Virus record (IMG/VR): IMGVR_UViG_2718218308_000001
Origin: a virus
Lineage: Duplodnaviria; Heunggongvirae; Uroviricota; Caudoviricetes
Direction: 5' to 3' (one strand)
DNA length: 44,703 nucleotides
Part shown: one piece after another, positions 20 through 37,732 of the stretch
How positions within the stretch are numbered: the first letter of the stretch is position 1
How the letters are laid out: the number at the start of each line of letters is the position of its first letter
Notes under the pieces: model-generated
Databases searched by the model: none
Seen by the model: the letters and a program-made list of their open reading frames with translations, nothing else
Told to the model about the DNA's origin: nothing
Translations under genes and position numbers: made by a program

Positions 20-1315
20 TTAATTTTTCATTGCTTCGTTATGGGGCATGGTTGGGGCAAACTCGCTTAACTGTGTATTTAACAAAGCTACCTGTGCATT
101 ATTGTTTTCAGACATCCATTTTCCGTATACCTGAAATACCATTTGCGCATCTGCATGGCCCATCTGGTTTGCTATAAATGCCGGGTTAGCACCAGCTGTC
201 AGCGACCAGCAGGCATAAGTATGTCTCGACTGATATGATTTTCGATGGCGGAGTCCGGCACGTTTTATCGCTGCGTCCCACATCTGCCTTATTGAGTCAA
301 CGGTAAAATGGTCACCATAATTTTTTACTCTCGCTGACACTTCAGGTTGAAAAACAAAGGTGCATTTTTGTTTTTCTGTTCTGCCATACTCTCTGAGGTG
401 AACATCAATGATATGCTCTTTGCTCAGTCTCGTTAATGTCATCTGACTCCGGAGAGCGTCGATTGCTGGCTTAATAAGATGAATGACCCGATTGGTTCCC
501 GCCTGTGTTTTTGGTACCGTGAAACGGTCTTTTGCTAAATTTCTCCTGATCATCATTGTTCCATTTTTCAGATCTATGTCCTCCCATCCAAGTGCACACA
601 GCTCACCAGGGCGAACGCCAGTATAAACAGAAACACACCATAAATTTTTGGCTTGCTGATTTCTGCACGCATCGATAAGACGGATGAATTCCTCCCGCGA
701 AAGAGGATCCGGAATGGTTCTTGATTCCTTTAATGGCGAGATCCCCTTAAACGGATTATCTGCCAGGTAACCGTTATCAACACCAAACTGGAACACGGCG
801 TTAAGATTTGTCATGTAATTATTTACAGTTACAGCCGATCTCCCTGGTTGTGTAACAATATAGTTACTTTTGGGGATCTGGTATCCAGTCAGTAGCTCTT
901 TACGAACCTCCAGTAATTTTTCTTTATTAATCGATGAGGCAAGATTTTTTTCACCGATTATGCTCAGGATATTTTTGATGACGGCACGGTATGTGTTGAG
1001 TGATGTTTTGGCGACTTCAGTTTCTTTCAGTGCCAGAAATTTTTCAGCCAGTTCTTTTATGGTTAAATCTTGTCGGGCCTCACCAAATTTTTCCAGATTG
1101 CGTGAGGAGGGAAACTGTTTTGCATAGTCGAAAACACCAGTTTTTATTGCGTAACAAACAGAGGAGCGTAGTTCACCTGCAACGCGCCTGTTTTTTGCTG
1201 TGTCAGGAACCCCCAGATTTTCCCTGACTCTTACGCCTTTATAAACAAACCAGATACGTAATTTCCCTCCATGGTTTTCCACGCCTGTCGGATATTTCAT
1301 TTCAACTTCTCTCAT
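20..1315 (-). CDS. Phage tyrosine integrase (site-specific recombinase)
   Basis: 431-aa ORF; C-terminal region (RHTYACW...GANPAFIANQMGH...VY) fits the tyrosine recombinase catalytic domain of IntR/IntS-type prophage integrases; sits at the prophage edge next to an excisionase-like gene. Family assignment from memory, not searched. Confidence 0.85.
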   Translation of the reverse strand: MREVEMKYPTGVENHGGKLRIWFVYKGVRVRENLGVPDTAKNRRVAGELRSSVCYAIKTGVFDYAKQFPSSRNLEKFGEARQDLTIKELAEKFLALKETEVAKTSLNTYRAVIKNILSIIGEKNLASSINKEKLLEVRKELLTGYQIPKSNYIVTQPGRSAVTVNNYMTNLNAVFQFGVDNGYLADNPFKGISPLKESRTIPDPLSREEFIRLIDACRNQQAKNLWCVSVYTGVRPGELCALGWEDIDLKNGTMMIRRNLAKDRFTVPKTQAGTNRVIHLIKPAIDALRSQMTLTRLSKEHIIDVHLREYGRTEKQKCTFVFQPEVSARVKNYGDHFTVDSIRQMWDAAIKRAGLRHRKSYQSRHTYACWSLTAGANPAFIANQMGHADAQMVFQVYGKWMSENNNAQVALLNTQLSEFAPTMPHNEAMKN

Positions 1316-1334
1316 TAGTTAGTGTGGCTTTTAG

Positions 1335-1586
1335 TCAAGTAAGATGACGTCTTGGTCTCGCTGATGCCTGGCGCTCAATCCAGCGATCAATTTCTTCCAG
1401 GTTGTAAAAGCATGGACTGTTATCCCATGGCATACCGTCATGAGCGACATGCTTATATTCCCTTCCTTCCATAAACGATTTTTCCCGGGCCTTTTTTAAC
1501 GTACCTTTTTTTATTCCTTTCAGCGCAATTAACTGCTCTTCGGATACCCATTTGCCGGGAGAGACAATCATGATTACTTCGCTCAT
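1335..1586 (-). CDS. Excisionase-like small DNA-binding protein
   Basis: 83-aa ORF directly upstream of and co-oriented with the integrase, the typical xis position. Called by position and size only. Confidence 0.55.
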   Translation of the reverse strand: MSEVIMIVSPGKWVSEEQLIALKGIKKGTLKKAREKSFMEGREYKHVAHDGMPWDNSPCFYNLEEIDRWIERQASARPRRHLT

Positions 1587-1658
1587 CGATTTCTTTATCT
1601 CTTACATCAGACGAGCGCCGGTTGCAGAATACCAGTCACAACCGGCGACAGTTGAACA

Positions 1659-3113
1659 TTAAGAATCAGCCTGACTCGGGATCAGTTTTTGCCAGATAAC
1701 TGAAACGTATTTTGCCTGGTAACGGGCGTCATCAAGTGCATTATGGCGCTCACCTTCGAATGGAATAGCCGTTCTGGCATCGAAGTCTATGGCTTTCCCC
1801 AGCTCAACGATTGTGCGTACATCGCGATCGTTGTAGTAACGCCACGGGCAGGGGATCCCCTGCCGTTCGTATGAACGGCGCAAAATCGTGTTGTCGAAGT
1901 TGGCTCCATTTCCCCAAACCTGAACAAAAAATTCACCGGAGTTTTCGTCGATAAATTCCCGTAATTGTAACAGTGCATCATCTAACGGGATTTCATCGGT
2001 CATAATGGCAGATTGCGCTTCGCGTGATTGCTTAAGCCACCATTTAATGGTGTCCCGATCAATGACTCCGCCAGCAGTTTCCAGATCGATAGTCTTACTA
2101 AATTCCGGTCCCATATCTCCGGTTTGCGGATCGAAAAATATTGCACCTATTGAGATGATCGGGGCATCAGGATTTTTTCCCATGGTTTCAAGGTCGATCA
2201 TTAGATGGTCACACGTCCTGCTGGTGGATGTGATTTCGTGATGACCGTTCACCTTAATTGAGTGATCTGCCGTCTCGCCAGTTTCATTATCGCTATTGTG
2301 ATGCTGATTGCCGCCAGTGTTCTCCTTGTGTGGATGTTCAGCGCCTTCCATTTCCTCCGGATCATCTTCCTGAACTTCAACCTGATACTCTTCATCGAAT
2401 GTTTCTTGGTATGTTGCGTCGCCCATCACCGCGCCACAATCAGGGCAGTTGCCGCCGCCGGTCTGACCGCAGGCGGTGCAGACTTTTTCCACTTCCTGTT
2501 GCGCCACTGGTTCAGGCTGTTTCGTTTCTGGCTCGTTTTGTAACGCATTTGTGCTGTTTTGTTCCGCTTTTTGGTAGTTCCGTTCCGATTCATGCTGGTT
2601 CTGGTTCACAGAATCGCGGGTCTGGATCCCCTTAACCCATTTCGGATCATTCGGGTCACTAATCCCTTCAACAAATTCACCACGTGATGCAGCAAGCAAC
2701 TTATCGGCGTCAGGCTGGCTGATATTGGCTGCCTGCATAATTTTGTTTACTTCGTCAGCGGTAACTTTTATCGGCTCTGGTTGTTCTGAATCTTCAGCGG
2801 TATCTACATTTTGCGGTAAGCCCGTGTATGTGCCATTTTTTCGGGCAAAATATTCTTCTTTTGTGATTTCAGTGGCGCCAGCAGCCAGTGCCTTATCCAG
2901 ACCAGAAAGTTTGTTTGCGCGACCGTATTTTTCTCCGTCCTTATCTGCGAAGAGGAAATAGAACGGCCCCTCACGCTCTACAGATGGTTCAGCTTCCGGC
3001 GCGGTTTCATTTTTTGGGATATCAGATACCTCAGTTTCCACTGCATCAGTTTGTGTTTCTGATGACTGGAGAACATCAACAGTGCCCAGGTCTGTTTCTT
3101 CATTCTCAAACAC
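1659..3113 (-). CDS. Putative phage exonuclease with C-terminal DEDD-type 3'-5' exonuclease domain; possibly 5'-truncated
   Basis: 484-aa ORF. C-terminal half has DnaQ-like motifs (MIDLETMG ... FDxxxL ... HNALDDA); N-terminal half is acidic and low-complexity with a CxxC...CxxC cluster. The ORF start lies 60 bp from the IS3 left end. Confidence 0.55.
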
Positions 3114-3238
3114 GCCCTTTGTCGTCAGGTATTCGCAGATATATTTGTTCAGTGCTATGGGATCTTTGTGAATTGATCTTACCCAGCAATAGTGGACACG
3201 CGGCTAAGTGAGTAAACTCTCAGTCAGAGGTGACTCAC

Positions 3239-3538
3239 ATGACAAAAACAGTATCAACCAGTAAAAAACCCCGTAAACAGCATTCGCCTGAATTTCGCAG
3301 TGAAGCCCTGAAGCTTGCTGAACGCATCGGTGTTACTGCCGCAGCCCGTGAACTCAGCCTGTATGAATCACAACTCTACAACTGGCGCAGTAAACAGCAA
3401 AATCAGCAGACGTCTTCTGAACGTGAACTGGAGATGTCTACCGAGATTGCACGTCTCAAACGCCAGCTGGCAGAACGGGATGAAGAGCTGGCTATCCTCC
3501 AAAAGGCCGCGACATACTTCGCGAAGCGCCTGAAATGA
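3239..3538 (+). CDS. insE: IS3 transposase OrfA (InsE)
   Basis: 99-aa product [32 protein letters not shown]... with helix-turn-helix region; overlaps orfB as in IS3-family elements. Confidence 0.9.
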
Positions 3539-4401
3539 AGTATGTCTTTATTGAAAAACATCAGGCTGAGTTCAGCATCAAAGCAATGTGCCGCGTGCTC
3601 CGGGTGGCCCGCAGCGGCTGGTATACGTGGTGTCAGCGGCGGACAAGGATAAGCACGCGTCAGCAGTTCCGCCAACACTGCGACAGCGTTGTCCTCGCGG
3701 CTTTTACCCGGTCAAAACAGCGTTACGGTGCCCCACGCCTGACGGATGAACTGCGTGCTCAGGGTTACCCCTTTAACGTAAAAACCGTGGCGGCAAGCCT
3801 GCGCCGTCAGGGACTGAGGGCAAAGGCCTCCCGGAAGTTCAGCCCGGTCAGCTACCGCGCACACGGCCTGCCTGTGTCAGAAAATCTGTTGGAGCAGGAT
3901 TTTTACGCCAGTGGCCCGAACCAGAAGTGGGCAGGAGACATCACGTACTTACGTACAGATGAAGGCTGGCTGTATCTGGCAGTGGTCATTGACCTGTGGT
4001 CACGTGCCGTTATTGGCTGGTCAATGTCGCCACGCATGACGGCGCAACTGGCCTGCGATGCCCTGCAGATGGCGCTGTGGCGGCGTAAGAGGCCCCGGAA
4101 CGTTATCGTTCACACGGACCGTGGAGGCCAGTACTGTTCAGCAGATTATCAGGCGCAACTGAAGCGGCATAATCTGCGTGGAAGTATGAGCGCAAAAGGT
4201 TGCTGCTACGATAATGCCTGCGTGGAAAGCTTCTTTCATTCGCTGAAAGTGGAATGTATCCATGGAGAACACTTTATCAGCCGGGAAATAATGCGGGCAA
4301 CGGTGTTTAATTATATCGAATGTGATTACAATCGGTGGCGGCGGCACAGTTGGTGTGGCGGCCTCAGTCCGGAACAATTTGAAAACAAGAACCTCGCTTA
4401 G
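3535..4401 (+). CDS. insF: IS3 transposase OrfB (InsF), DDE integrase-like catalytic domain
   Basis: 288-aa ORF overlapping orfA in another frame; contains DDE-type residues (WAGDITY...HTDRGGQY...[10 protein letters not shown]). Confidence 0.9.
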
Positions 4402-4431
4402 GCCTGTGTCCATATTACGTGGGTAGGATCA

Positions 4432-4686
4432 CGTGGAAGTATGAGCGCAAAAGGTTGCTGCTACGATAATGCCTGCGTGGAAAGCTTCTTTCATTCGCTG
4501 AAAGTGGAATGTATCCATGGAGAACACTTTATCAGCCGGGAAATAATGCGGGCAACGGTGTTTAATTATATCGAATGTGATTACAATCGGTGGCGGCGGC
4601 ACAGTTGGTGTGGCGGCCTCAGTCCGGAACAATTTGAAAACAAGAACCTCGCTTAGGCCTGTGTCCATATTACGTGGGTAGGATCA
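4432..4686 (+). mobile_element. Partial IS3: tandem duplicate of the 3'-terminal 255 bp
   Basis: 4432..4686 repeats 4177..4431 (the insF 3' end plus right terminal repeat) immediately after the complete element. ORFs 4441..4656 (+) and 4429..4668 (-) are artefacts of this duplication. Confidence 0.85.
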
Positions 4687-4846: not shown

Positions 4847-5887
4847 ATGTCCCAGTACGACAAAGCCACGCAAACAGCAGGTTTAGTACGCATAACTAAT
4901 CAATTAGAGTCTATATACGGAACTTTTATTGATATGAAAGATATTAATTCCGTAGGAGAGCATAGGAAAGAAACTCTAATTACACGCTGTGTAGCTGCGC
5001 ATGCAATCAGCTTGTATGGTGATGAACCAGACCCTGAGTTAGCTGCTAATGCTGTCTGCGATGGAAAAGATGATGGCGGGATAGATGCAGTTTATGTTAA
5101 TAAAAATTCGAGAAAGATAGTAATAGTTCAGTCAAAATATATTAAAAATGGCGACGGTTCTATAACCACAAGAGAATTCGGAAGATTCAAAGACGCATGC
5201 GCAAAAGTAATAGCCAGCGACTTTACAACATTTAACGAAAGGTTTTTAAGAAACAAAGACTCCATAATTGAAGCAATCTCAGGATTTACATATAAATGTA
5301 TATGTGTATTTATATATACAGGGGTTCATGAGCCAAGCGAAGAAGTAAAATCAGACATAGAGTTTTGGGAAAAGGTTCAGAATCGGTCTCTATTATTTAA
5401 AGATATAGAGAATAGAGATGAGTATTCAGTGCTATTCGAGCCGGCAGGTATACAAGTGATAATGGATGGTCTTTCTAATGATCGATCAAAATCTATAAAT
5501 GTTAGCAATGTTCACCTTGAAAGTTATGGAGAGATAGCAGAACCTTATAAAGCAATATACGGAACAATATCCGCAAGGATCCTATACGACTGGTGGGAAA
5601 AGTACAAGTACTCTCTGTTCGAGAAAAATATAAGAAGTGTCCTCGGTAATTCATCCATAAACTCTGGGATAAAGAAAACATTAAGTGAAAAGCCGGAGAA
5701 TTTTTGGTACTATAACAATGGGATAACTGCTGTATATAGTGATGTAGAAGAAAGCATGATCAACTTAAGTACAAGCAGGAAGTACGGGCTATTTAGTTTT
5801 AAAAGTCTGAGTATAATAAATGGAGCTCAAACTGTAAGCACTATTGGTGAAGTGTTCAACTCTTTACCCGAAGAAATAAAGATCTAA
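4847..5887 (+). CDS. Candidate abortive-infection/defence protein, N-terminal part (PD-(D/E)xK nuclease-like motif; AIPR-like)
   Basis: 346-aa ORF in an AT-rich island. Motif GIDAVYVN...KIVIVQSKY fits a PD-(D/E)xK D...(E/Q)xK signature; a later NGAQT motif resembles AIPR-family Abi proteins as I recall them. Shine-Dalgarno-like AGGAG upstream. Family assignment unverified. Confidence 0.5.
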   Translation: MSQYDKATQTAGLVRITNQLESIYGTFIDMKDINSVGEHRKETLITRCVAAHAISLYGDEPDPELAANAVCDGKDDGGIDAVYVNKNSRKIVIVQSKYIKNGDGSITTREFGRFKDACAKVIASDFTTFNERFLRNKDSIIEAISGFTYKCICVFIYTGVHEPSEEVKSDIEFWEKVQNRSLLFKDIENRDEYSVLFEPAGIQVIMDGLSNDRSKSINVSNVHLESYGEIAEPYKAIYGTISARILYDWWEKYKYSLFEKNIRSVLGNSSINSGIKKTLSEKPENFWYYNNGITAVYSDVEESMINLSTSRKYGLFSFKSLSIINGAQTVSTIGEVFNSLPEEIKI

Positions 5888-5892
5888 TCAAG

Positions 5893-6621
5893 GTGAGCAT
5901 TAGATTTATCAGTGCAGCAAAAGAAGATTTTTTAACCTCTGTCACTAAATTCAACAATACACAAAACAGGGTTACTGGAAGAGATTTCTCATCACAGAGG
6001 CCCGAGCAACAAAGAATACAAAGAGAAATAAACTTTATTGGCGGATATAGCTACAAACTACTCAGGCAAGAAGACTCCAGCCAGACAGGTGGTAATACCA
6101 TTGATATTGATGATGCTTTAAACGCATTAGTGTGTGCCTCTAAAGATGAAACATTGATATCTTCCTTAAAACTAAATAGAGGACGTTTTTTTGAAAGCTG
6201 GGGAGGTCTTTATGAAAAAGTATTCCCAGCTGAAAATGGTCCTACCGGTTTAGATATAATAAATAAAGTAAATGCTTATAGATTAGCAAATGATATATTG
6301 CAAGAAAGTATAGTTAAACTACTATCAGTAGATATGGAAAATCAGAAGCAGATTCATCAAATAATGATTCATGGAAATTATGTTTTAATATCCATACTCA
6401 TGAATAAAATAGAAGTTTCCTCTGTGGAGAATCACATCTTCTCTTATAGCCGAAACGTTTCACTGGAGGAATGTATAGAGCTGGCTTCTGATACTTATAA
6501 TCACATACAGGAAGTCTTCCCCAATAGTTATATAGCAAGATTCTTCCAGAACAGAGAAAAAGTATTAAATATTATTAATCATCTACTAGGTAAAGAGCAG
6601 ATCATCGAATTGCAAGAGTAA
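5893..6621 (+). CDS. Second ORF of the candidate defence locus (C-terminal part of a frameshifted gene, or a separate partner gene)
   Basis: 242-aa ORF with GTG start 5 nt after the upstream stop, in a different frame; that frame is open from 5851, so one indel in 5851..5887 would fuse the two ORFs into about 590 aa. Followed by a strong terminator. Confidence 0.45.
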   Translation: MSIRFISAAKEDFLTSVTKFNNTQNRVTGRDFSSQRPEQQRIQREINFIGGYSYKLLRQEDSSQTGGNTIDIDDALNALVCASKDETLISSLKLNRGRFFESWGGLYEKVFPAENGPTGLDIINKVNAYRLANDILQESIVKLLSVDMENQKQIHQIMIHGNYVLISILMNKIEVSSVENHIFSYSRNVSLEECIELASDTYNHIQEVFPNSYIARFFQNREKVLNIINHLLGKEQIIELQE

Positions 6622-6623
6622 AA

Positions 6624-6657
6624 GTAAGAGCCACCTGCGGGTGGCTCTTACTTATTT
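6624..6657 (+). terminator. Rho-independent terminator after the candidate defence locus
   Basis: 12-bp perfect stem GTAAGAGCCACC / GGTGGCTCTTAC with TGCG loop, followed by TTATTT. Confidence 0.7.
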
Positions 6658-7299
6658 GACTCTACCATATGCTCGCATTTGCCATAACATATGTTGCGTA
6701 CGCTCAGAAATACGTGGAGGGCGTTTCTGGTCTAAAATCGTCAAGACACTCCATCATATATTCAGGAAATTGCTAATAATCGTGTAGGTGAATACTGCTT
6801 AAAATTCATATATATGAAATTGAACCTGTTGGCTTGCGTCGGACTTTGCGTATTAAAAGAAGTGCTGGTGGTGACTAGTGGTTGAGCTCCATTTCCACAG
6901 AAAAATCAGAGAAACCATACCCAATAGTTGTATTGAATCACGGACGAGACAGCCTCATATTTATCAGGACTGGTGTACGTCCAATACAGGAGGTTGTGGT
7001 GCTGGTTCTCAAATGTGCGCTGGCTATTACGGCTGTAATGGCGATTTATTGTCTTGCTATTGTTCTTATGGATCGCCTTTCTGACTGATTTCATATTGGC
7101 GAGGTAAAGGTAGTTAAGTAGAATGGCTGCGGGTGCTTGAGGCTATCTGCCTCGGGCATGAACACCAAAGGCAGATAGAGAAAAGCCCCAGTTAACATTA
7201 CGCGTCCTGCAAGACGCTTAACATTAATCTGAGGCCAATTTCATGCTAGACACATGTAGGTTAGCCTCTTACGTGCCGGAAGGCAAGGAGAAGCAGGCT

Positions 7300-7455
7300 A
7301 TGAAGCAGCAAAAGGCGATGTTAATCGCCCTGATCGTCATCTGTTTAACCGTCATAGTGACGGCACTGGTAACGAGGAAAGACCTCTGCGAGGTACGAAT
7401 CCGAACCGGCCAGACGGAGGTCGCTGTCTTCACAGCTTACGAACCTGAGGAGTAA
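7300..7455 (+). CDS. hokD: Hok/Gef-family membrane toxin (type I toxin)
   Basis: 51-aa product MKQQKAMLIALIVICLTVIVTALVTRKDLCEVRIRTGQTEVAVFTAYEPEE matches HokD/RelF of the K-12 Qin prophage as I recall it; AGGAGA ribosome-binding site upstream. The track ORF from 7243 is an in-frame upstream extension. Confidence 0.85.
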   Translation: MKQQKAMLIALIVICLTVIVTALVTRKDLCEVRIRTGQTEVAVFTAYEPEE

Positions 7456-7525
7456 GAGACCCGGCGAGGGAGAAATCCCTCGCCACCTCTGATGTGGCAG
7501 GCATCCTCAACGCACCCGCACTTAA

Positions 7526-7550
7526 CCCGCTTCGGCGGGTTTTTGTTTTT
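7526..7550 (+). terminator. Rho-independent terminator downstream of hok
   Basis: Hairpin CCCGC-TTCG-GCGGG followed by TTTTTGTTTTT; a second hairpin (GGCGAGGG / CCCTCGCC, 7463..7484) lies just upstream. Confidence 0.6.
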
Positions 7551-7671
7551 ATTTTCAACGCGTTTGAAGTTCTGGACGGTGCCGGAATAGAATCAAAAAT
7601 ACTTAAGTAGCGCGCAGGGATAAGAGGGATGGTCCCTTAAAGGGGAGAGCTAATTATCCGGAAGGATTCTG

Positions 7672-7923
7672 ATGATGAACATCGAAGAACTGCGTAAAAT
7701 TTTTTGTGAAGATGGCCTCTATGCTGTGTGCGTTGAAAATGGAAATCTTGTTAGTCATTACCGCATTATGTGTTTGCGAAAGAATGGGGCTGCGTTAATT
7801 AATTTTGTGGATGGTCGAGTGACAGACGGATTTATCTTGCGCGAAGGTGAGTTTGTCACTTCATTACAGGCACTGAAAGAGATCGGAATAAAAGCAGGCT
7901 TTTCAGCTTTTGCAGAAGAATAA
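7672..7923 (+). CDS. rem: Small prophage protein, Rem-like
   Basis: 83-aa ORF in the same position relative to hok and the DUF968 gene as rem in Qin. Called by size and synteny only. Confidence 0.45.
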   Translation: MMNIEELRKIFCEDGLYAVCVENGNLVSHYRIMCLRKNGAALINFVDGRVTDGFILREGEFVTSLQALKEIGIKAGFSAFAEE

Positions 7924-7989
7924 ACTCATCTACAATCTTGCGCGGGGCTGAACTCCCGCTGAGTAACACCGTGCCACCGGAGAAAACCG

Positions 7990-8268
7990 ATGGCACGCAA
8001 CGTAAAATATTACAATTCTGATAATTCGCCCGTTCTTGTCTGCACGCACGAGCGGTATTCTCACGCATTCAAGTCTGAATGGTTCCAACACCCTCCATGC
8101 ACTGAAGAGCAGGCTGAATGGATAATTCAGTGTTACCGCAGGCGCGGATACGAGGTTAAGAAAGCCCTTAGTCTCGACTACCGTCACTGGATAATCTCAG
8201 TCAGATTGCCTTACTCCGAACGCCCACCGCGTCCGTCCCGTACATTCCAGCAACGCATCTGGAGGTAA
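7990..8268 (+). CDS. Hypothetical protein
   Basis: 92-aa ORF between the rem-like and DUF968 genes, co-oriented; no recognisable motif. Confidence 0.3.
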   Translation: MARNVKYYNSDNSPVLVCTHERYSHAFKSEWFQHPPCTEEQAEWIIQCYRRRGYEVKKALSLDYRHWIISVRLPYSERPPRPSRTFQQRIWR

Positions 8269-8269
8269 C

Positions 8270-9319
8270 GTGCGGGTATTACTTCGACCTGTTCTGGTAC
8301 CGGAACTTGGGCTGGTGGTCGTTAAGCCGGGCCGTGAATCCATGCCGGTATTCCACAATACCCGGGTACTGGTGGAGCCGGAACCGAAAAGCATGCGTAA
8401 TCTGCCGTCCGGGGTCGTTCCTGCCGTTCGCCAGCCGCTGGTGGAAGACAAAACATTGCTGCCGTTTTTCAGTAACGCACGGGTAATTCGTGCTGCTGGT
8501 GGTGCTGGTGCATTGTCTGACTGGCTGTTGCGCCATATTAAATCCTGCCAGTGGCCACACGGCGATTATCATCACAGCGAAACCGTTATTCACCGATATG
8601 GTACCGGCGCAATGGTGTTGTGCTGGCACTGCGACAACCAGCTGCGTGACCAGACATCCGAATCACTCGAGCAACTTGCTCATCAAAACCTGTCAGCATG
8701 GATGATTGACGTCATCGGTCACGCAATAAGCGGTACGCAGGAGCGTGAATTATCTCTGGCTGAATTATCCTGGTGGGCGGTCCGCAATCAGCTGGCGGAC
8801 GCGCTACCGGAAGCGGTATTACGTCGCTCGCTGGGATTACCAGCGGAAAAAATCTGCTCGGTGTACCGCGAAAGCGACATCGTACCGGGAGAGCAGACCG
8901 CCACCAGCATATTGAAACAGCGCACAAAAAATCTTGCACCGTTGCCTCACGCCCACCAGCAACAAAACCCATCACAGGAAAAGACGGTGGTAAGCATCAC
9001 CGTTGATCCAGAGTCTCCGGAATCTTTCATGAAGCTGCCTAAACGTCACCGGTGGGTTAAGGAGAAATACACACGCTGGGTTAAGACACAGCCGTGTGCT
9101 TGCTGCGGTATGCCAGCCGACGATCCGCATCATCTGATTGGTCACGGGCAGGGCGGAATGGGAACCAAAGCACATGATCTCTTTGTTTTGCCTTTGTGCA
9201 GAAAGCATCACGACGAGTTGCATACGGATACCGTGGCATTTGAAGAGAAGTATGGCTCCCAACTGGAGCTGATTTTTCGATTTATCGATCGCGCGCTGGC
9301 AATTGGTGTGCTGGCCTAA
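8270..9319 (+). CDS. ydfU: DUF968-family prophage protein with HNH-like zinc-finger nuclease motif (YdfU-like)
   Basis: 349-aa ORF; C-terminus [21 protein letters not shown]...CRKHHDELH has Cys/His spacing typical of HNH modules; directly upstream of the Q-like gene as in Qin. Confidence 0.65.
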
Positions 9320-9321
9320 TT

Positions 9322-9714
9322 TTGTGGAGTAAGTTGATGCGTGATATTCAGATGGTTCTTGAGCGTTGGGGGGCATGGGCGGCTAATAATCATGAAGATG
9401 TGACCTGGTCGTCCATTGCCGCCGGTTTTAAGGGATTAATTCCTTCAAAAGTAAGATCTCGTCCGCAATGCTGTGACGATGACGCGATGATCATTTGTGA
9501 ATGTATGGCTCGCCTGAAAAAAAACAACAGCGATTTACATGATTTATTGGTGGACTATTATGTCGGCGGCATGACTTTTATGGCGCTTGCACGTAAGCAT
9601 GGGCGATCTGATTGTTGGGTTGGCAGGATGCTCCAGAAAGCTGAGGGCGTAGTGGAGGGCATGCTGATGGTGTTGGATCTCCGATTGGAGATGGATGCTG
9701 ATTGTTCGAAATAA
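9322..9714 (+). CDS. quuQ: Late-gene antiterminator Q-like protein
   Basis: 130-aa ORF immediately after the DUF968 gene and upstream of a short region ending in a terminator (PR'/tR' arrangement); Cys-rich central region. Confidence 0.65.
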
Positions 9715-9814
9715 TTAAAGGAAAAGTTGCTGTCTGATTTTCATTAGTCTAACATTTTAAATGTTGGAATCGCAACGTAGTTATTATCATATAACAGCTT
9801 ATTTCCTGATTTAG

Positions 9815-9841
9815 CCAGCCTCCCCAAAGGCTGGTTTTTTT
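9815..9841 (+). terminator. Putative late-operon terminator tR' (target of Q antitermination)
   Basis: Hairpin CCAGCC-TCCCCAAA-GGCTGG followed by TTTTTTT, about 100 bp downstream of the Q-like gene. Confidence 0.5.
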
Positions 9842-9869
9842 CTAATAAGTATCATTTCGGGTGGGGATT

Positions 9870-10394
9870 TTATTGTTTAACCCATAATAGTTCATTGACA
9901 TTGAATCCCAACTTTTGAGCGGTACGCACATAGTCTGCTTTTACATTATCTGGAATAGTTTGGGTCCTTGCCAGAATCCATAGGTATTCTCTGTTCGGAC
10001 CACTGACAAGAGCATACTTATACTCATCATCCAGTTTGATTACATTATAGCCACCATAGAAGGGGCCAAAAAACGAAACTTTCAACGCTGCAGTTTTAGT
10101 ATCTCCAGTAAAGTATGCTTTACCTTCGCTCTCGCTCCATTTGTTTTTCGTTGGATCGTATCCACGGTTAAGTACGCGAATCCCTCCGTCGTTCCGTTTT
10201 TCATAAGTAGCGCTGACCTGTTCCAGACCACGTTCGAACCAGTTCTCGAGGCGAGCTATTTCATACCATTTTCCGAGGTAGCGGTTGGCGTCAAAATTTG
10301 TAATCGGCTGCACACCTTTAGGTTGTGTCGGGGCCTTACATGCTATAAGAGTGAAAGAGAGTGCAATGCCAGTCAACACAGGCCATAACTTCAT
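9870..10394 (-). CDS. Outer-membrane lipocalin, Blc-like lipoprotein (cargo gene)
   Basis: 174-aa ORF with lipoprotein signal and lipobox (LIAC); lipocalin motifs GKWYEIAR and SFFGPFYGGYNVI; strong resemblance to E. coli Blc. Opposite strand to the phage late operon. Confidence 0.85.
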   Translation of the reverse strand: MKLWPVLTGIALSFTLIACKAPTQPKGVQPITNFDANRYLGKWYEIARLENWFERGLEQVSATYEKRNDGGIRVLNRGYDPTKNKWSESEGKAYFTGDTKTAALKVSFFGPFYGGYNVIKLDDEYKYALVSGPNREYLWILARTQTIPDNVKADYVRTAQKLGFNVNELLWVKQ

Positions 10395-10586
10395 AATAAA
10401 TCCTGTACTTTTGATAGTTGAGAGTAAGTATGAAAGATAGATGAGTACGACCGATCACTTAAAGAACTTTCCTACTATATTAGGAATAGTCAATAACAGA
10501 AAAATTGTCAGTGATGAAGCCAGAAAGGCAATTTAGTCCGTGCACTACAAAGTTTATGTGTTAATGAATTAGTCAAGGGGGAGGAA

Positions 10587-11546
10587 ATGATAAAAAAACC
10601 TGTGATTGGGATCAGCGGTTGTTTGGGCGGTTCTGCTGTTCGTTTTGATGGTGGTCACAAAAGAGATGACTTTTTAATGGACAAATTAGTGGAATGGGTA
10701 ACATTCAGACCAGTATGTCCGGAAATGGCTATAGGGCTGCCAGTTCCGCGTCCTGCTCTACGACTTGTGCGCTCGAAGCAAGGAAATATACGGATGTGTT
10801 TCAGCCACGACCAGAATGAGGATGTGACAGAGAGAATGACAGAGTTTAGTCGTTCTTATATGGACAAATTAAAGGATGTATCGGGGTTTGTGGTTTGTGC
10901 TAAATCTCCCAGCTGTGGCATGGAGCGCGTGCGTGTCTATGATGAAAATGGTAATCGAGGTCGTAAAGATGGAGTGGGACTATTTACGAGCACTTTGATG
11001 GAAAAGTTTTCCTGGCTACCGGTTGAAGAGGATGGGCGATTACATGATCCAGTGCTTCGTGAGAATTTTATTGAAAGAGTTTTTGCTTTGCATGAGCTCA
11101 ATCACCTTTACAAGGAGAAATTATCAAGAAGAGAGTTATTAGCTTTTCATAGTCGTTATAAGCTTCAGTTGTTGGCGCATAGCCAGGCAGGCTATAAAGA
11201 TATGGGACCATTTGTGGCTGCAATACACGAGTGGGCGGACCTTGAATCATACTTTGAGGTGTATCGTGATAATCTGATGGCGATTCTCAGAAAACCAGCA
11301 TCACGTAAAAATCACACGAATGTGCTGATGCATATACAGGGGTATTTTAGTAATTACTTAAGTACACGCCAGCGTAAAGAGTTGAGCGAGGTTATACTTA
11401 ACTATCGCTTTGGCACATTGCCTCTTCTTGCGCCGTTGACTCTGCTGAAGCATTATCTGGGTGAGTATCCTAATGATTACTTGCTTACACAGAATTACTT
11501 CGATCCCTATCCGGAAGAACTGGCTCTAAGACTGATGGTGAATTAA
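10587..11546 (+). CDS. YbgA-like protein (DUF523 Cys-rich domain plus DUF1722 domain) (cargo gene)
   Basis: 319-aa ORF; N-terminal conserved cysteines (GISGCLGG, CPEM, SPSCG) typical of DUF523/TudS-like Fe-S proteins; GGAGG ribosome-binding site. Domain assignment from memory. Confidence 0.6.
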   Translation: MIKKPVIGISGCLGGSAVRFDGGHKRDDFLMDKLVEWVTFRPVCPEMAIGLPVPRPALRLVRSKQGNIRMCFSHDQNEDVTERMTEFSRSYMDKLKDVSGFVVCAKSPSCGMERVRVYDENGNRGRKDGVGLFTSTLMEKFSWLPVEEDGRLHDPVLRENFIERVFALHELNHLYKEKLSRRELLAFHSRYKLQLLAHSQAGYKDMGPFVAAIHEWADLESYFEVYRDNLMAILRKPASRKNHTNVLMHIQGYFSNYLSTRQRKELSEVILNYRFGTLPLLAPLTLLKHYLGEYPNDYLLTQNYFDPYPEELALRLMVN

Positions 11547-11943
11547 CTGTATGCGATATCATCTGAAAGTGATGAGTTCCTGTATGCAGGATATTTACAA
11601 TCGTAAAAACTACGCTATGATGCTCATAGTGTCAGTTTTTATAAAAATCCTGTTCACGCTAAAGAAAACATTGAGATGCAATTTAATGTTGGTAAACATA
11701 CCAGCCCCAAAAGATTTTATTCAATCTGTTTTTATATGAAGATATTTCAAGTGAATATAAAGAGCATATAATATTATTATTGCACGCAGCTATTATAATA
11801 TAACAGATTAGTTTAATGATTTGTTTTTTGTGAGTTAAACACATGGTTTTATAGTTGTGATGCAATGAGATTTTCCTTATTGTTGAACTGGCGAATATTG
11901 ATTTTCCACCTATACTTACCTAGTGTAACCCCAATGATATCAG

Positions 11944-12666
11944 GTGGATAATATGTCATACATATGTTCTATCATTTTGGTGTTGAACTCGTTTGGTGTC
12001 CGAATTGGTAAAGAAGATATTTTGTTTAAAAAAGGAAATGCTGTCCTCATTGAATACAATTTAAAAGATCTTTTTTCGTCAAATACAGATCATCTAATGA
12101 TCGTAGATGTTGAGGAGAAAACAGTTAATGATTTCTTTAAAAACTACACACTCTCACCTTTTTCTGTAAGAAGGTTTTATCCGTCATACTTGATAGTAGA
12201 ATGTGAAGATTTTTCATTGTTAAAGAACTTGGTTGCATGCTTGAATTGTGATAGCAAAACCGTGGATGTAGTTAGAAATCAAATATCACTTGCATGTCTT
12301 GCTGTCTTATCTTCAGAGAAAATAGTGCAAAGTTTTTTGTTCGGAAGTCTTAATAGCTTAGGTTGTAAAGTTAAGGCTATTATTCACTCGGATATCTCAG
12401 CGTCATGGAGACTTTGTGATATATCTTCAAGATTATATATGAGCGAGAGTTTGTTAAAAAGAAAATTAAAAGACGAAGGATTATCGTTTAGTAAATTAAT
12501 TCTTGAAGAACGAATGATGATGGCGCAAAGATTATTGATCTACAGTAACCATACTGTCGGCAAGGTGGCGGGAATATGCGGGTATGACAATGCATCATAT
12601 TTTGTAAGTGTTTTTAGAAGATATTTTGGTGTGCCTCCGCACCAATATTTATCAAGATTTTCTTAG
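11944..12666 (+). CDS. AraC-family transcriptional regulator, AppY/EnvY-like (cargo gene)
   Basis: 240-aa ORF in very AT-rich DNA; C-terminal AraC-type helix-turn-helix (GYDNASYFVSVFRRYFGVPPHQY) resembling the prophage-borne regulator AppY. Confidence 0.75.
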   Translation: MDNMSYICSIILVLNSFGVRIGKEDILFKKGNAVLIEYNLKDLFSSNTDHLMIVDVEEKTVNDFFKNYTLSPFSVRRFYPSYLIVECEDFSLLKNLVACLNCDSKTVDVVRNQISLACLAVLSSEKIVQSFLFGSLNSLGCKVKAIIHSDISASWRLCDISSRLYMSESLLKRKLKDEGLSFSKLILEERMMMAQRLLIYSNHTVGKVAGICGYDNASYFVSVFRRYFGVPPHQYLSRFS

Positions 12667-12856
12667 AAGATATGATGTGATGGCATTTTATAAAGTTATT
12701 TTTTGAAGTGTAAGATTATACGATATTTTTAGCTACGCCAGAATAATTGCTGGCGTTTTTCTTTTTGAATAGATGTTCGGGCCTTACGCTAATGTAACTT
12801 CTTTCCTTCTTCGAACCAAACCGTGTACACCATCCGTTATCTGCGGAGGTGAGGCT

Positions 12857-13072
12857 ATGAAATCCATGGATAAGTTAACAACGGGCATCGCCTACAGCAC
12901 CTCTGCAGGCAGTGCTGGCTACTGGTTTTTACAGTTGCTCGATAAAGTCACGCCCTCACAGTGGGCGGCAATAGGTGTATTGGGTAGTCTGGTATTTGGC
13001 ATGCTGACGTATCTGACAAATCTTTATTTCAAGATTAAAGAAGACAGGCGTAAGGCTGCGAGAGGAGAGTAA
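12857..13072 (+). CDS. essQ: Holin, class II (phage 21 S-like)
   Basis: 71-aa product [71 protein letters not shown] with two transmembrane segments and a charged C-terminus; GGAGGTGAGG ribosome-binding site. Confidence 0.8.
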
Positions 13073-13076
13073 TCCA

Positions 13077-13271
13077 ATGACTCAAGACTATGAACTGGTT
13101 GTGAAAGGAGTCCGTAATTTTGAGAATAAAGTTACGGTAACTGTAGCCTTACAGGACAAAGAACGCTTTGACGGTGAAATTTTTGACCTGGATGTCGCCA
13201 TGGACCGTGTTGAAGGAGCTGCGCTGGAGTTTTATGAGGCAGCAGCCAGAAGGAGCGTCCGGCAAGTCTGA
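13077..13271 (+). pseudogene. ydfR: ydfR-like lysis-cassette gene interrupted by IS3
   Basis: 64-aa ORF whose stop codon TGA is formed by the first bases of IS3; the same frame resumes after the IS for a further 38 codons (14527..14643), restoring an ORF of about 102 aa. Confidence 0.7.
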
Positions 13272-13333
13272 TCTTACCCAGCAATAGTGGACACGCGGCT
13301 AAGTGAGTAAACTCTCAGTCAGAGGTGACTCAC

Positions 13334-13633
13334 ATGACAAAAACAGTATCAACCAGTAAAAAACCCCGTAAACAGCATTCGCCTGAATTTCGCAGTGAAG
13401 CCCTGAAGCTTGCTGAACGCATCGGTGTTACTGCCGCAGCCCGTGAACTCAGCCTGTATGAATCACAACTCTACAACTGGCGCAGTAAACAGCAAAATCA
13501 GCAGACGTCTTCTGAACGTGAACTGGAGATGTCTACCGAGATTGCACGTCTCAAACGCCAGCTGGCAGAACGGGATGAAGAGCTGGCTATCCTCCAAAAG
13601 GCCGCGACATACTTCGCGAAGCGCCTGAAATGA
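13334..13633 (+). CDS. insE: IS3 transposase OrfA (InsE), copy 2
   Basis: Same protein as copy 1. Confidence 0.9.
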
Positions 13634-14496
13634 AGTATGTCTTTATTGAAAAACATCAGGCTGAGTTCAGCATCAAAGCAATGTGCCGCGTGCTCCGGGT
13701 GGCCCGCAGCGGCTGGTATACGTGGTGTCAGCGGCGGACAAGGATAAGCACGCGTCAGCAGTTCCGCCAACACTGCGACAGCGTTGTCCTCGCGGCTTTT
13801 ACCCGGTCAAAACAGCGTTACGGTGCCCCACGCCTGACGGATGAACTGCGTGCTCAGGGTTACCCCTTTAACGTAAAAACCGTGGCGGCAAGCCTGCGCC
13901 GTCAGGGACTGAGGGCAAAGGCCTCCCGGAAGTTCAGCCCGGTCAGCTACCGCGCACACGGCCTGCCTGTGTCAGAAAATCTGTTGGAGCAGGATTTTTA
14001 CGCCAGTGGCCCGAACCAGAAGTGGGCAGGAGACATCACGTACTTACGTACAGATGAAGGCTGGCTGTATCTGGCAGTGGTCATTGACCTGTGGTCACGT
14101 GCCGTTATTGGCTGGTCAATGTCGCCACGCATGACGGCGCAACTGGCCTGCGATGCCCTGCAGATGGCGCTGTGGCGGCGTAAGAGGCCCCGGAACGTTA
14201 TCGTTCACACGGACCGTGGAGGCCAGTACTGTTCAGCAGATTATCAGGCGCAACTGAAGCGGCATAATCTGCGTGGAAGTATGAGCGCAAAAGGTTGCTG
14301 CTACGATAATGCCTGCGTGGAAAGCTTCTTTCATTCGCTGAAAGTGGAATGTATCCATGGAGAACACTTTATCAGCCGGGAAATAATGCGGGCAACGGTG
14401 TTTAATTATATCGAATGTGATTACAATCGGTGGCGGCGGCACAGTTGGTGTGGCGGCCTCAGTCCGGAACAATTTGAAAACAAGAACCTCGCTTAG
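13630..14496 (+). CDS. insF: IS3 transposase OrfB (InsF), copy 2
   Basis: Same protein as copy 1. Confidence 0.9.
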
Positions 14497-14645
14497 GCCT
14501 GTGTCCATATTACGTGGGTAGGATCAGTCTTCCTGGAAGTAGCAGAAAAATTGTCAGAAAAAGTTGAGTCTTATCTGCAGCATCAGTACTCCTTTAAGAT
14601 TGAAAATCCTGCCAATAAGCACGAGCGTCCTCATCATAAATATAT

Positions 14646-15673
<1,028 letters not shown>

Positions 15674-16036
15674 GGTAATATTAAATCGGAACATTTACAT
15701 CGCGGAATGTAAAATTTAAATAAAAAGGACTCTTCCATGAGCCAAAATTCCTGAAATCTTAAGGGTAAGATAAAAGGTCTTAATCAGAATGACACGTTAT
15801 TATTAATAAATAAAGCTATTCTTTCATTGCTGTGTTTTTCTTTACAAAAGTAATCCTTGCTATGGGTGGTTAATCATGCGTTAATGGTGTTCTGGTTTGT
15901 TACAAATTTATCTGAAGCAGTCATTGTTATAATTTTATTATTTGTACCTCTTGAGATTTCCTTGTTGGTTTTTCTCTCTGATATTTTTTTTCGGACCATT
16001 CTGCCCAAGGGCTAATTTCTTCAAAAGGTAATAATT

Positions 16037-16249
16037 ATGTCTAACAAAATGACTGGTTTAGTGAAATGGTTTAACCCTGAAAAAGGTTTTGGTTTCATCA
16101 CGCCGAAAGATGGCAGCAAAGATGTGTTTGTCCATTTCTCAGCAATTCAGAGCAACGATTTCAAAACATTAACTGAGAATCAGGAAGTTGAATTTGGTAT
16201 TGAGAACGGACCTAAAGGTCCTGCCGCTGTTCATGTAGTGGCGCTTTGA
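16037..16249 (+). CDS. cspI: Cold-shock protein, CspA family
   Basis: 70-aa product with RNA-binding motifs [12 protein letters not shown] and VFVHFSAI; preceded by a long AT-rich leader typical of csp genes. Confidence 0.9.
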
Positions 16250-16456
16250 GGTAGACAATATTACAAACCATATTCACTTTAGATGCCCGTGTTGTCATGG
16301 TTCCCAGTATAGAACATCATCTTTTGATGTTTCTGACATGAATCCTTTCGGGGCAAAATGTATCTTTTGTAAATCAATGATGATTACATTTGATAATATT
16401 TCACAATACTTAAATGCCAGCCGTCTGTCGTTGGATTTAAAAAAGTGAAAATGAAG

Positions 16457-16476
16457 GCTCCTTCGGGAGCTTTTTT
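16457..16476 (+). terminator. Rho-independent terminator
   Basis: Hairpin GCTCC-TTCG-GGAGC followed by TTTTTT. Confidence 0.55.
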
Positions 16477-16478
16477 GC

Positions 16479-16751
16479 TTGGTATCTATTCGATGGATAC
16501 TCACATACTACGGTAACATCATGAAAAAAATCATAGTTTTTTTTAACTCTGAACCTGCAGTGGTAGTGCCAGCGATGACTGGAGTTAACACCATCATGCG
16601 TGAATATCCAAATGGTGAAAAAACACACCTTACTGTAATGGCCGCAGGGTTTCCATCTCTGACCGGAGATCATAAAGTCATTTATGTAGCCGCGGATCGA
16701 CATGTTACTTCAGAAGAAATTCTGGAAGCAGCAATAAGGCTCTTGAGTTGA
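16479..16751 (+). CDS. Hypothetical small protein (possibly ynfN-like)
   Basis: ORF with TTG start at 16479 or ATG at 16521 (MKKIIVFF...); position matches ynfN in the Qin layout; no motif recognised. Confidence 0.35.
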   Translation: MVSIRWILTYYGNIMKKIIVFFNSEPAVVVPAMTGVNTIMREYPNGEKTHLTVMAAGFPSLTGDHKVIYVAADRHVTSEEILEAAIRLLS

Positions 16752-16919
16752 TTTGATGCTATTGTATTGATAATTCAGGAAAATTTTCTTTGTCTGTTTG
16801 TGTAAAATTTAGACTATCGTATGTTGATTATTGCGATGTTTCATCTTATCTTTTACACGTTTGCACCATATAATCGACTTACTGTGTAACTGGAAAGTCA
16901 TAACAGACTAAAAGAGGAA

Positions 16920-17096
16920 ATGATGAATATTGAAAACTTAAAAACAAAAGCAGAAGCAGATATTTCTGAATATATAACAAAAAAAATTATTGAACTTAAG
17001 AAAAAGACCGGGAAAGAAGTTACCAGTATTCAGTTTACCGCACGGGAAAAAATGACGGGTCTTGAAAGCTATGATGTCAAGATTAATTTAATCTGA
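16920..17096 (+). CDS. gnsB: GnsA/GnsB-family small protein
   Basis: 58-aa ORF found by manual translation (below the track size cut-off): MMNIENLKTKAEADISEYITKKIIELKKKTGKEVTSIQFTAREKMTGLESYDVKINLI, close to GnsB as I recall it; AAGAGGAAA ribosome-binding site. Confidence 0.7.
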   Translation: MMNIENLKTKAEADISEYITKKIIELKKKTGKEVTSIQFTAREKMTGLESYDVKINLI

Positions 17097-17247
17097 TGTA
17101 TTCAATAATAAAATTTATCCATAAACCTCGTTTTTACGGGGTTTTGTTATATTTGAATGGTTCCGAATATCTAAATCACAATTGTTGATGGTTTTTATTA
17201 AACCAATGCAGTCCGGCTCAGGAGTGAGAGAAGCCGGACGTTATGGT

Positions 17248-17673
17248 TTAGCGTGGTAAGATCTGTGTAGTTTTCTGGATGCTTTCAGTAAATAGTAATG
17301 AATTATCAAAGGTATAGTAATATCTTTTTTGTTCGTGGATATTTGTAACCCACCGAAAAACTCCTGCTTTAGCAAGGTTTCTTCTGTATTCCTGAAATGT
17401 GATCTCTCTGGATTTCAGCTTATTAGAGGTCGTTTCTATAAGATGCCTATCCTTTGAAAATTTGACAGACACAATGTTTTTTAGGCCCTTTAATAACACT
17501 GTATTATCATTTTTTAATACAATATGAACATTCTCTGTGGCTAAATAGTAAATGTAATGTGAGACATTGTGACGTTTTAGCTCAGAATAAAACCATTGAT
17601 AGTTTAAATCGTTTCGAACTTTATCAAATATTTGTTTAAAAATGACTACCTGATCCATAGATAAACCTTCCAT
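17248..17673 (-). CDS. ydfO: DUF1398-family prophage protein (YdfO-like)
   Basis: 141-aa ORF on the minus strand in the Qin-like position between gnsB and ynfO. Called by synteny and size. Confidence 0.5.
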
Positions 17674-17715
17674 GTGATATGAGGGGGCGTAGTCTGCACG
17701 ATTATCTAAATTGCT

Positions 17716-37132: not shown

Positions 37133-37732
37133 ATGCGTAAACTTTATGCCGCCATTTTGTCCGCAGCCATTTGTCTGGCCGTATCCGGTGCGCCTGCATG
37201 GGCGTCTGAACATCAGTCCACGCTGAGCGCGGGCTATCTTCATGCCTCGACGAACGTTTCCGGCAGCGATGATCTGAACGGGATTAACGTGAAATACCGT
37301 TATGAGTTTACGGACACGCTGGGAATGGTGACGTCATTCAGCTATGCAGGAGACAAGAATCGCCAGCTTACCCGTTACAGCGATACCCGCTGGCATGAAG
37401 ATTCCGTGCGTAACCGCTGGTTCAGCGTAATGGCGGGGCCGTCTGTGCGCGTGAATGAATGGTTCAGCGCGTATGCGATGGCGGGTGTGGCTTACAGCCG
37501 TGTGTCGACTTTCTCCGGGGATTATCTCCGCGTAATTGACAACAAGGGGAAAACGCACGACGTGCTGACCGGAAGTGATGACGGTCGCCACAGCAACACG
37601 TCTCTGGCGTGGGGAGCTGGCGTGCAGTTTAACCCGACCGAATCCGTGGCCATTGATATTGCTTATGAAGGCTCCGGCAGTGGTGACTGGCGCACTGACG
37701 GTTTCATCGTGGGTGTCGGTTATAAATTCTGA
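37133..37732 (+). CDS. lom: Outer-membrane beta-barrel protein Lom (Ail/OmpX family)
   Basis: 199-aa ORF with signal peptide and C-terminal aromatic residue (YKF); lambda lom position. Confidence 0.9.

Follow-up and report, generated by a model that had tools for sequence, protein, structure and literature searches.

What do three accessory genes between the late antiterminator and the lysis genes of a lambdoid prophage do, and in which phase of phage life are they expressed? The question is raised by the interval 9715-12700 of a 44,703-nucleotide stretch of viral DNA (IMG/VR record IMGVR_UViG_2718218308_000001, Caudoviricetes), the whole of which is called the window here. A first-pass annotation, made without database searches, had described the interval as a cargo cluster of a Blc-like lipocalin, a YbgA-like cysteine-rich protein and an AraC/AppY-like regulator, bordered by the antiterminator gene Q with its terminator tR' and by the holin gene. 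In the current study, gene order was defined by a list of open reading frames (ORFs) for window positions 7500-15000 together with a Pfam profile search. All of the features in the earlier description are present where it placed them, chance cannot account for any of them, and the three cargo ORFs are intact. The interval is probably a moron cassette, which would give lysogens an outer-membrane lipocalin, an eraser of 4-thiouridine (s4U) in tRNA, and a PatE-like activator with a probable role in the GAD/Hde acid-resistance regulon.

The central gene (10587-11546, plus strand, 319 amino acids (aa)) encodes a fusion of a TudS domain (PF04463, DUF523; residues 7-149, E 5.8e-40, 137 bits against a cut-off of 34.7) and a DUF1722 domain (PF08349; residues 192-309, E 9.4e-40, 136 bits against a cut-off of 22.5). 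TudS-DUF1722 fusions have been defined as RudS, which removes 4-thiouridine from tRNA (PMC11417400). The tRNA-binding DUF1722 part of the window protein is 49% identical to K-12 YbgA, and the protein is 92% identical (26 substitutions, both 319 aa) to gp66 of Escherichia phage 1H12 (H3V29_gp66), the assayed RudS_vir (PMC11417400). Alignment to the TudS structure 6Z92 keeps Cys12, Cys44-Pro-Glu46 and Ser107-Pro-Ser109-Cys110, and so the three cysteine ligands of a [4Fe-4S] cluster as well as the catalytic Glu and Ser. RudS_vir has Cys12, Cys44 and Cys110, and the cysteine positions of RudS_ST match too (PMC11417400). The DUF523/DUF1722 type given in the first-pass annotation was correct but its label was not: judged by sequence, the "YbgA-like" gene is rudS, encoding a predicted tRNA 4-thiouridine desulfidase.

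All RudS variants lowered tRNA s4U when overexpressed in E. coli; RudS_vir gave the shortest lag on 4-thiouracil, and RudS_KT shortened the UVA-induced growth delay (PMC11417400). The window protein shares with RudS_vir its architecture, its cluster ligands and its gene position between blc and an AraC-like gene, as 1H12 gp66 sits downstream of Q, between the Blc gene and a gene for a 243-aa "hypothetical" protein. It differs in being another allele, on a defective prophage at the Qin site, and the RudS_vir study gave neither phage context nor a physiological role in lysogens (PMC11417400). That study also stated that E. coli lacks RudS (PMC11417400); contrary to this statement, about one fifth of complete E. 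coli genomes carry RudS on the prophage module described here. Its host was BL21(DE3), a B strain related to REL606 (PMC11417400). In E. coli B REL606 (locus L003, positions 6383-8603), rudS is cut by IS3 and ydfU is truncated.

The minus-strand gene (9870-10394, 174 aa) matches Lipocalin_2 (PF08212, E 7.5e-43), scores 308.6 bits with the NCBIfam model of the Blc subfamily (NF007786, cut-off 267) and matches the Blc crystal structure 3MBT in the PDB (E 1e-65). Read by eye, its N-terminus holds the signal peptide MKLWPVLTGIALSFTLIA-C19-K, with the lipobox LIAC and with Lys, not Asp, at position +2. A lipoprotein signal, a lipobox and sorting to the outer membrane can thus be read from the sequence, and the minus-strand lipoprotein lipocalin proposed earlier is borne out. 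The protein is 58% identical to K-12 Blc (b4149) and 78-79% identical to lipocalins linked to rudS in the chromosomes of Enterobacter cloacae and Citrobacter sedlakii, which are themselves 64-66% identical to K-12 Blc. It is not an ortholog of the ampC-linked chromosomal blc, and these identities place it in a different lineage of the Blc family. Among phages, it is 95% identical to the Blc of Lambda_2E9. Twelve phage records carry the block, all but one of them from the LR59xxxx Lambda series, which we take to be the collection of infant-gut lambda phages of which more than 50% were counted as carriers of a blc moron (PMC6969025).

The third gene (11953-12666, plus strand) encodes an AraC/XylS-family protein of 237 aa from ATG 11953, the start used by RefSeq in identical loci; a start at 11944 would give 240 aa. 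Its Pfam matches are HTH_18 (E 1.8e-17; 63.8 bits, cut-off 33.6) and HTH_AraC (47.9 bits, cut-off 26.6). It was compared with PatE (the Z0321 equivalent, taken from strain ATCC 43894), with PsrA (ECs1087, from the Sakai prophage Sp4) and with the K-12 paralogs; the first place checked for PsrA, the potB/potC-site prophage of ATCC 43894, contained no AraC gene. The closest of these is PatE (48% identity over 237 aa, E 1e-78), followed by PsrA (39% over 237 aa), GadW (33%), and AppY and YdeO (30% each), the full-length identities to AppY, YdeO, GadW and GadX all lying between 27 and 33%. The nearest NCBIfam models are YdeO, GadX and HilD, all of them far under their equivalog cut-offs (YdeO 115.4 bits against 348; GadX 90 against 500). 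AppY (from the prophage DLP12), YdeO, GadW and GadX of K-12 belong to the same AraC/XylS subgroup, but on these scores the regulator is not an ortholog of any of the four. The first-pass annotation was right about the AraC family and the AT-rich composition, and imprecise in calling the gene AppY-like.

Structural comparison agrees with this placement. In an AlphaFold (AF2) model with a predicted local distance difference test score (pLDDT) of 86, the C-terminal domain superimposes on the DNA-binding domain of GadX (3MKL) with a template-modeling (TM) score of 0.88-0.92 and a root-mean-square deviation of 1.2-1.5 A, and the full-length model matches the two-domain architecture of CsvR, Rns and ToxT, with sequence-level hits in agreement. 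A search of 5.8 billion proteins returned a narrow family, from E. coli wherever the source was named, with clusters at 99, 86, 76, 59, 51 and 48% identity. The protein is therefore best placed, by sequence and by predicted fold, as an uncharacterized member of the PatE/Psr group of prophage regulators within a GadW/YdeO/AppY/PatE/Psr clade.

The prophage-borne members of this clade have been reported to rewire host acid-resistance genes and genes of the enterocyte effacement locus (LEE): gadE and hdeAB are activated by PatE and PsrB, whose binding to the hdeA promoter falls between -132 and -45, and PsrA and PsrB repress type III secretion via GadE (reviewed in PMC10877973). AppY, also prophage-borne, feeds into acid resistance (PMC10057817). 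PatE, encoded by Z0321 in OI-8 of EDL933, is the closest characterized relative; both proteins are prophage-borne and both have an N-terminal xxCS(I/V)I motif. In its DNA-binding half the regulator shares 66% identity with PatE; of the recognition helices, the first (SESLLKRKLK) is the same in both proteins and the second differs at two positions. Such near-identical helices are suggestive of a possible shared activation of gadE and hdeAB. The PatE gene itself lies after the tail-fiber genes at a prophage end, unlike the window gene, which occupies the slot between Q and lysis. PsrA and PsrB are prophage-encoded secretion regulators of enterohemorrhagic E. coli; PsrA belongs to the same clade, and its gene is AT-rich and occupies the same slot in Sakai Sp4. 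PsrA and PsrB are more distant than PatE, and the Psr genes are tied to loci of type III secretion effectors and to Pch regulators, which are absent from the window. The psrA gene is reported to be downregulated on deletion of the small RNA HnrS and upregulated on its pulse expression, an effect judged indirect by the authors (PMC13502914). PsrA is annotated in Sakai Sp4 (locus L011, 28677-29390) with 195 aa; the ORF extends upstream to 237 aa, and the annotated start looks too short, as the longer form has the conserved N-terminus of the family, MVVVCSVI.

The first-pass annotation had proposed a homology search for the trio as a recurring unit, and its recurrence is extensive. Of 5426 complete E. 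coli genomes, 1153 contain a match to the 2986-bp interval, and in 880 the match extends over 80% or more of the query. Locations of the block include the Qin site, the lambda attachment site beside ybhC/bioA and other places, among them a remnant prophage with little else left; the trio is present in the cultured phages IdasGreatGrand, Lambda_2E9 and 1H12. The order Q-blc-rudS-regulator-holin is kept in 72 of the 80 IMG/VR contigs that bear rudS; the exceptions are mostly contig ends, with two real variants that have no regulator (L082 is one of them). Both blc and rudS are present in all 72 regulator-bearing contigs with enough upstream DNA, and the Q linked to the block is 97-100% identical in 77 contigs. 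The trio was not described as one unit in the literature searched. Calling the three genes non-phage, as was done earlier, needs qualification: they are cargo, but all three fall in established PHROG families (function unknown in each) and are carried by cultured phages. The same gene order, with 85-98% aa identity, also occurs on two short contigs (L070 and L075) of a metagenome-assembled genome in GTDB, "Candidatus Nanosynbacter sp. D148_maxbin.008"; these are almost certainly mis-binned E. coli phage DNA.

Between alleles, the regulator (76-86% aa identity) evolves faster than Blc (95-97%) or RudS (92-97%). All three genes are under purifying selection: compared with other alleles, their ratios of nonsynonymous to synonymous substitutions (dN/dS) are 0.13-0.28, with dS reaching 0.59.

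Relatives of RudS were also scanned in one genome per species, which gave 62 chromosomal rudS loci (65-76% identity) in Citrobacter, Enterobacter, Leclercia, Kluyvera, Klebsiella oxytoca, Pectobacterium and others. In 41 of these, including loci of Enterobacter, Citrobacter and Leclercia, a lipocalin gene lies divergently upstream of rudS, and in 33 of the 41 pairs the two genes are about 1.4 kb apart. The E. cloacae gap (locus L039, 3021-5960), the only spaced locus examined, holds a MerR/MlrA-like regulator gene and a small transthyretin-like gene; in C. sedlakii (locus L024, 4283-5960) lipocalin and rudS are directly adjacent, as in the phage. Taken with the lipocalin identities given above, this arrangement indicates that lipocalin and rudS probably passed into the phage as a pair, out of a chromosome of an enterobacterium. 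The intergenic region between blc and rudS in the window (10395-10586), in which the promoters of both divergent genes would be expected, has no recognizable homology to its chromosomal counterparts. A MlrA/MerR-type operator considered for this region was rejected, as it came down to a 6-nt inverted repeat with the wrong spacing. The chromosomal linkage suggests a common context for lipocalin and RudS, possibly light stress; the RudS paper makes no mention of the lipocalin (PMC11417400).

The regulator appears to have come from elsewhere. The G+C content is 29-35% across 11550-12750, which covers the AraC gene and its leader (11643-11952, about 29-30%), against 41-47% for blc and rudS and 45-55% in the flanking phage genes. 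In addition, the similarity of the alleles at the DNA level is interrupted in the rudS-regulator gap, from which we infer that the AT-rich regulator had an origin separate from that of blc-rudS. A 62-aa ORF in this gap (11551-11739) was rejected as non-coding, since its frame is broken by indels in other alleles. A direct repeat (9775-9804 and 11784-11813; 30 nt, 83% identical, extendable to about 36 nt) brackets tR'-blc-rudS, and its second copy is missing from the Lambda_2E9-type allele; an insertion scar and a shared regulatory element are both conceivable. None of the 72 contigs has a Q-regulator arrangement without blc-rudS.

The claim that the interval between Q and lysis is a slot for accessory cargo is supported by the other prophages compared. 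K-12 Qin, at the same chromosomal site, has cspF/cspB in this slot, DLP12 has an 86%-identical Q followed by the minus-strand outer-membrane protein gene nmpC, and Sakai Sp4 has PsrA and tRNAs, in contrast to the window, where a tRNA search of the slot was negative. The stx genes of Stx phages occupy the same slot downstream of Q; the window differs in that its plus-strand cargo genes are each followed by a terminator of their own. Varied cargo among related phages and a deviating G+C content are both features of morons.

The left border of the slot is Q (9337-9714, plus strand, QuuD type, 125 aa; PF06530, E 8e-51), taken from ATG 9337, although the mechanical ORF opens at TTG 9322. It is 86% identical to QuuD of K-12 DLP12 at the aa level and 97-98% identical to the Q proteins of IdasGreatGrand and Lambda_2E9. 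The 98 positions that follow (9715-9812) are, by analogy with lambda, the presumed late-operon leader with PR' and the Q-utilization site, and are conserved at 95% among the four alleles compared. Candidates for PR' are weak and sigma-70-like only: TGGAGA-18-AATAAT at 9686-9715, found by scan, and TTGCTG-17-TAACAT at 9728-9756, found by eye. A terminator scan placed a strong tR'-like intrinsic terminator at 9813-9845, its stem (9813-9836; 9 bp, GC-rich, followed by T7) lying 99 nt past the Q stop. The stretch 9757-9850 folds at -26.2 kcal/mol (z -4.95), and the element is unchanged across the four alleles; the hairpin is consistent with the tR' noted near Q in the first-pass annotation. An Rfam match in the slot was discarded, as it is sub-threshold (23.8 bits against 50, E 0.11) and is the tR' hairpin itself.

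Two further terminators are found in the slot. A hairpin with an A tract, stem and T tract follows rudS (11603-11642; -17.6 kcal/mol, z -6.3; also found by scan) and is kept in five alleles despite diverged flanks, and another lies between the regulator gene and the holin gene (12735-12764; -15.3 kcal/mol, z -2.0; likewise found by scan). Promoter-like sites precede the regulator gene only. One of them (TTTACA-16-TATGAT, 11594-11621) overlaps the rudS terminator and is invariant across alleles, and the second is TTGTGA-16-TATAGT (11828-11855); the scan of the region returned 13 sites, near the 11.2 expected by chance. Thus, rudS and the regulator gene each have their own terminator, as morons do, and for blc this is not clear. 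The terminators after rudS and the regulator gene make insulated units of both without Q, and given the terminators in the slot only antiterminated polymerase should reach the holin gene from PR'. Both plus-strand genes have the look of autonomous units, in keeping with a moron organization. Ahead of the regulator gene, an invariant CCACCT (11907-11912) can pair with the Shine-Dalgarno sequence AGGTGG (11942-11947), and the loop between them diverges among alleles. A hairpin sequestering the Shine-Dalgarno was nevertheless rejected, since with its arms invariant the fold is no better than that of shuffled sequences (z -0.9 to -1.5); the pair could be a translational control element and is kept as a lead only.

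The prophage that carries this copy is defective. Strain LR-48 has a lambdoid prophage beside rspB with which the window is collinear at 99.9%, and the rspB-adjacent site is the chromosomal site of K-12 Qin. A complete IS3 (3171-4431) and a 255-bp partial IS3, together spanning 3171-4686, replace the immunity and early block, which in LR-48 (locus L001, 3380-8965) comprises dicB, ydfD, repressor, cro, ydaT, replication genes and DUF977. With this early region the normal cascade that makes Q has been lost, so that expression from PR' under Q control is unlikely in this window. The earlier suggestion that the plus-strand genes could be expressed in this way is therefore doubtful here, also in view of their own terminators, and plausible in intact relatives. 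The exact arrangement of the window was found in none of the complete genomes of the collection, the best of which covers 87%.

The evidence can be joined in the following scheme. The three-gene cassette would travel with a QuuD-type Q in lambdoid E. coli phages, inside the late-operon leader. In a lysogen, PR' transcripts would halt at tR' and each cargo gene would be read from its own promoter. The lipocalin would be exported to the outer membrane, where it may handle lysophospholipids or damaged lipids. RudS, an enzyme that E. coli otherwise lacks, would strip s4U8 from host tRNA, blunting the near-UV tRNA cross-link, growth delay and the stringent response and making translation less sensitive to near-UV light. 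The regulator, which H-NS probably keeps silent until stress, would bind AT-rich promoters such as those of hdeA and gadE and raise acid resistance in the manner of PatE and PsrB. When intact relatives grow lytically, polymerase modified by Q would read through all three terminators; it would transcribe rudS and the regulator gene along with the lysis genes and cross blc in the antisense direction. In the defective prophage of the window, only the autonomous mode is likely.

Several points count against a moron cassette of this kind. The function of Blc itself is poorly defined. The promoter scan found no promoter for blc or rudS, the intergenic region 10395-10586 included. Silencing of the regulator by H-NS is deduced from AT content only. 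With 48% overall identity to PatE, and with an N-terminal half that is 35% identical to PatE and 24% to PsrA, the regulator may respond to different signals and have different targets. Finally, RudS_vir was among the weaker tRNA desulfidases and was tested in overexpression only (PMC11417400).

The plus-strand genes could instead be mainly lytic-cycle helpers on the Q-antiterminated late transcript, and not genes of lysogenic conversion; RudS would then remodel host tRNA so that UV-induced cells go on translating, and the regulator would have its role in late development. Several observations point this way: rudS and the regulator gene share the late-operon orientation between Q and holin, the linkage of the block to one Q allele is strict, and the block is kept in cultured plaque-forming phages. 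The terminator on each of these genes and the opposite direction of blc do not agree with such a role, however, and the genes are intact and under purifying selection in prophages that are beyond the lytic cycle, such as those of the window and of strain 99-3165. Moreover, PatE and PsrA/B act in uninduced lysogens (PMC10877973). Taken as the main role, lytic assistance appears unlikely, although lytic and lysogenic roles do not exclude each other.

The history of the chromosomal pair raises another alternative, which must be considered improbable: that the AraC-like protein is chiefly a local regulator of blc-rudS, replacing a chromosomal regulator of the MerR/MlrA type, and does not govern acid resistance of the host. 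The gap of about 1.4 kb in most chromosomal pairs, with the MerR/MlrA-like gene in that of E. cloacae, would fit this proposal, as would the phage arrangement, which has no such gene and always has the AraC gene adjoining. The regulator has a different history from its neighbors, however, to judge by its G+C content (30-35%), by the break in allele similarity between rudS and the regulator gene, and by the confinement of its family to E. coli prophages. At least one contig (L082) has blc-rudS without it, no repeated candidate operator is common to the blc-rudS intergenic region and the region upstream of the regulator gene, and PatE and PsrB bind host promoters (PMC10877973). That all three genes are inert hitch-hikers, captured host DNA persisting by linkage to Q and the lysis genes, is very improbable: the window prophage is decaying and the IS3 break of rudS in REL606 has no known consequence, but dN/dS is low in all three genes, most of the roughly 1150 genomes and 72 of the 80 viral contigs keep the ORFs intact, and RudS conserves its catalytic residues, the phage RudS being active when expressed (PMC11417400).

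A more specific proposal can be made tentatively, and it too is unlikely to hold: the cassette would be a co-selected "sunlight and stomach" hardening module and not a set of three unrelated morons, in which a captured chromosomal light-stress pair (lipocalin and RudS), absent from E. coli itself, is combined with a PatE-like acid-resistance regulator. If this were true, in lysogens RudS would erase the near-UV sensor s4U8, so that UVA would no longer trigger cross-linking, stringent response and growth arrest, and translation would stay available when UV induces the prophage. The regulator would couple the pair to acid resistance and perhaps also act on the pair's own expression.

The genes surrounding the slot are those of a lambdoid prophage. 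A DUF968/YdfU gene (8270-9319; ORF list and Pfam) precedes Q. On the right, the slot ends at the first lysis gene, an S21-type holin of 71 aa (12857-13072, plus strand; PF04971, E 6e-34), for which the mechanical ORF starts at 12773 and the identical gene is essD in RefSeq. It is followed by a DUF1327/YdfR gene, then lysozyme; a second IS3 (13269-14526) splits ydfR between holin and lysozyme, truncating it to 64 aa and breaking up the lysis cassette. Upstream, an AIPR gene (4847-6621) is split into ORFs of 346 and 242 aa and is intact in LR-48 (591 aa); this abortive-infection-type gene is possibly a former defense gene of the prophage. Downstream of the lysis genes is a second accessory cluster at about 16000-17700, with cspI, ynfQ, ynfR, ynfN and gnsB (by collinearity with LR-48) and with a DUF1398/YdfO-like gene on the minus strand (17248-17673). 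In the right half of the window, features at 37133-37732, 41493-42083 and 43420-44703 include a Lom/Ail outer-membrane protein gene after the tail-tip gene, a Pin-type serine invertase gene after the tail-fiber genes, and, at the right end, a transporter of the major facilitator superfamily, which probably marks the chromosomal flank.

As a whole, the cargo module is ordinary and largely known, as each part is of a described kind and no new kind of system is involved. RudS_vir had been assayed, blc had been noted as a moron, and the PatE/Psr family had been described. The gene identities, the joint capture of lipocalin and rudS, the tight linkage of the trio to one Q allele, the prevalence of RudS in E. 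coli and the defective copy are modestly new. For the biology of E. coli, they mean that with the block in about one in five complete genomes many strains get RudS from a prophage, and prophage content could partly account for how strains differ in near-UV growth delay, in their stringent response to sunlight and in solar disinfection. With the regulator, the PatE/Psr/AppY set that plugs into the GAD acid-resistance network gains a widespread member, one found mainly in commensal and livestock strains rather than in enterohemorrhagic E. coli. The linkage and joint transfer of lipocalin and rudS, in turn, hint that the bacterial lipocalin works in the stress context of RudS.

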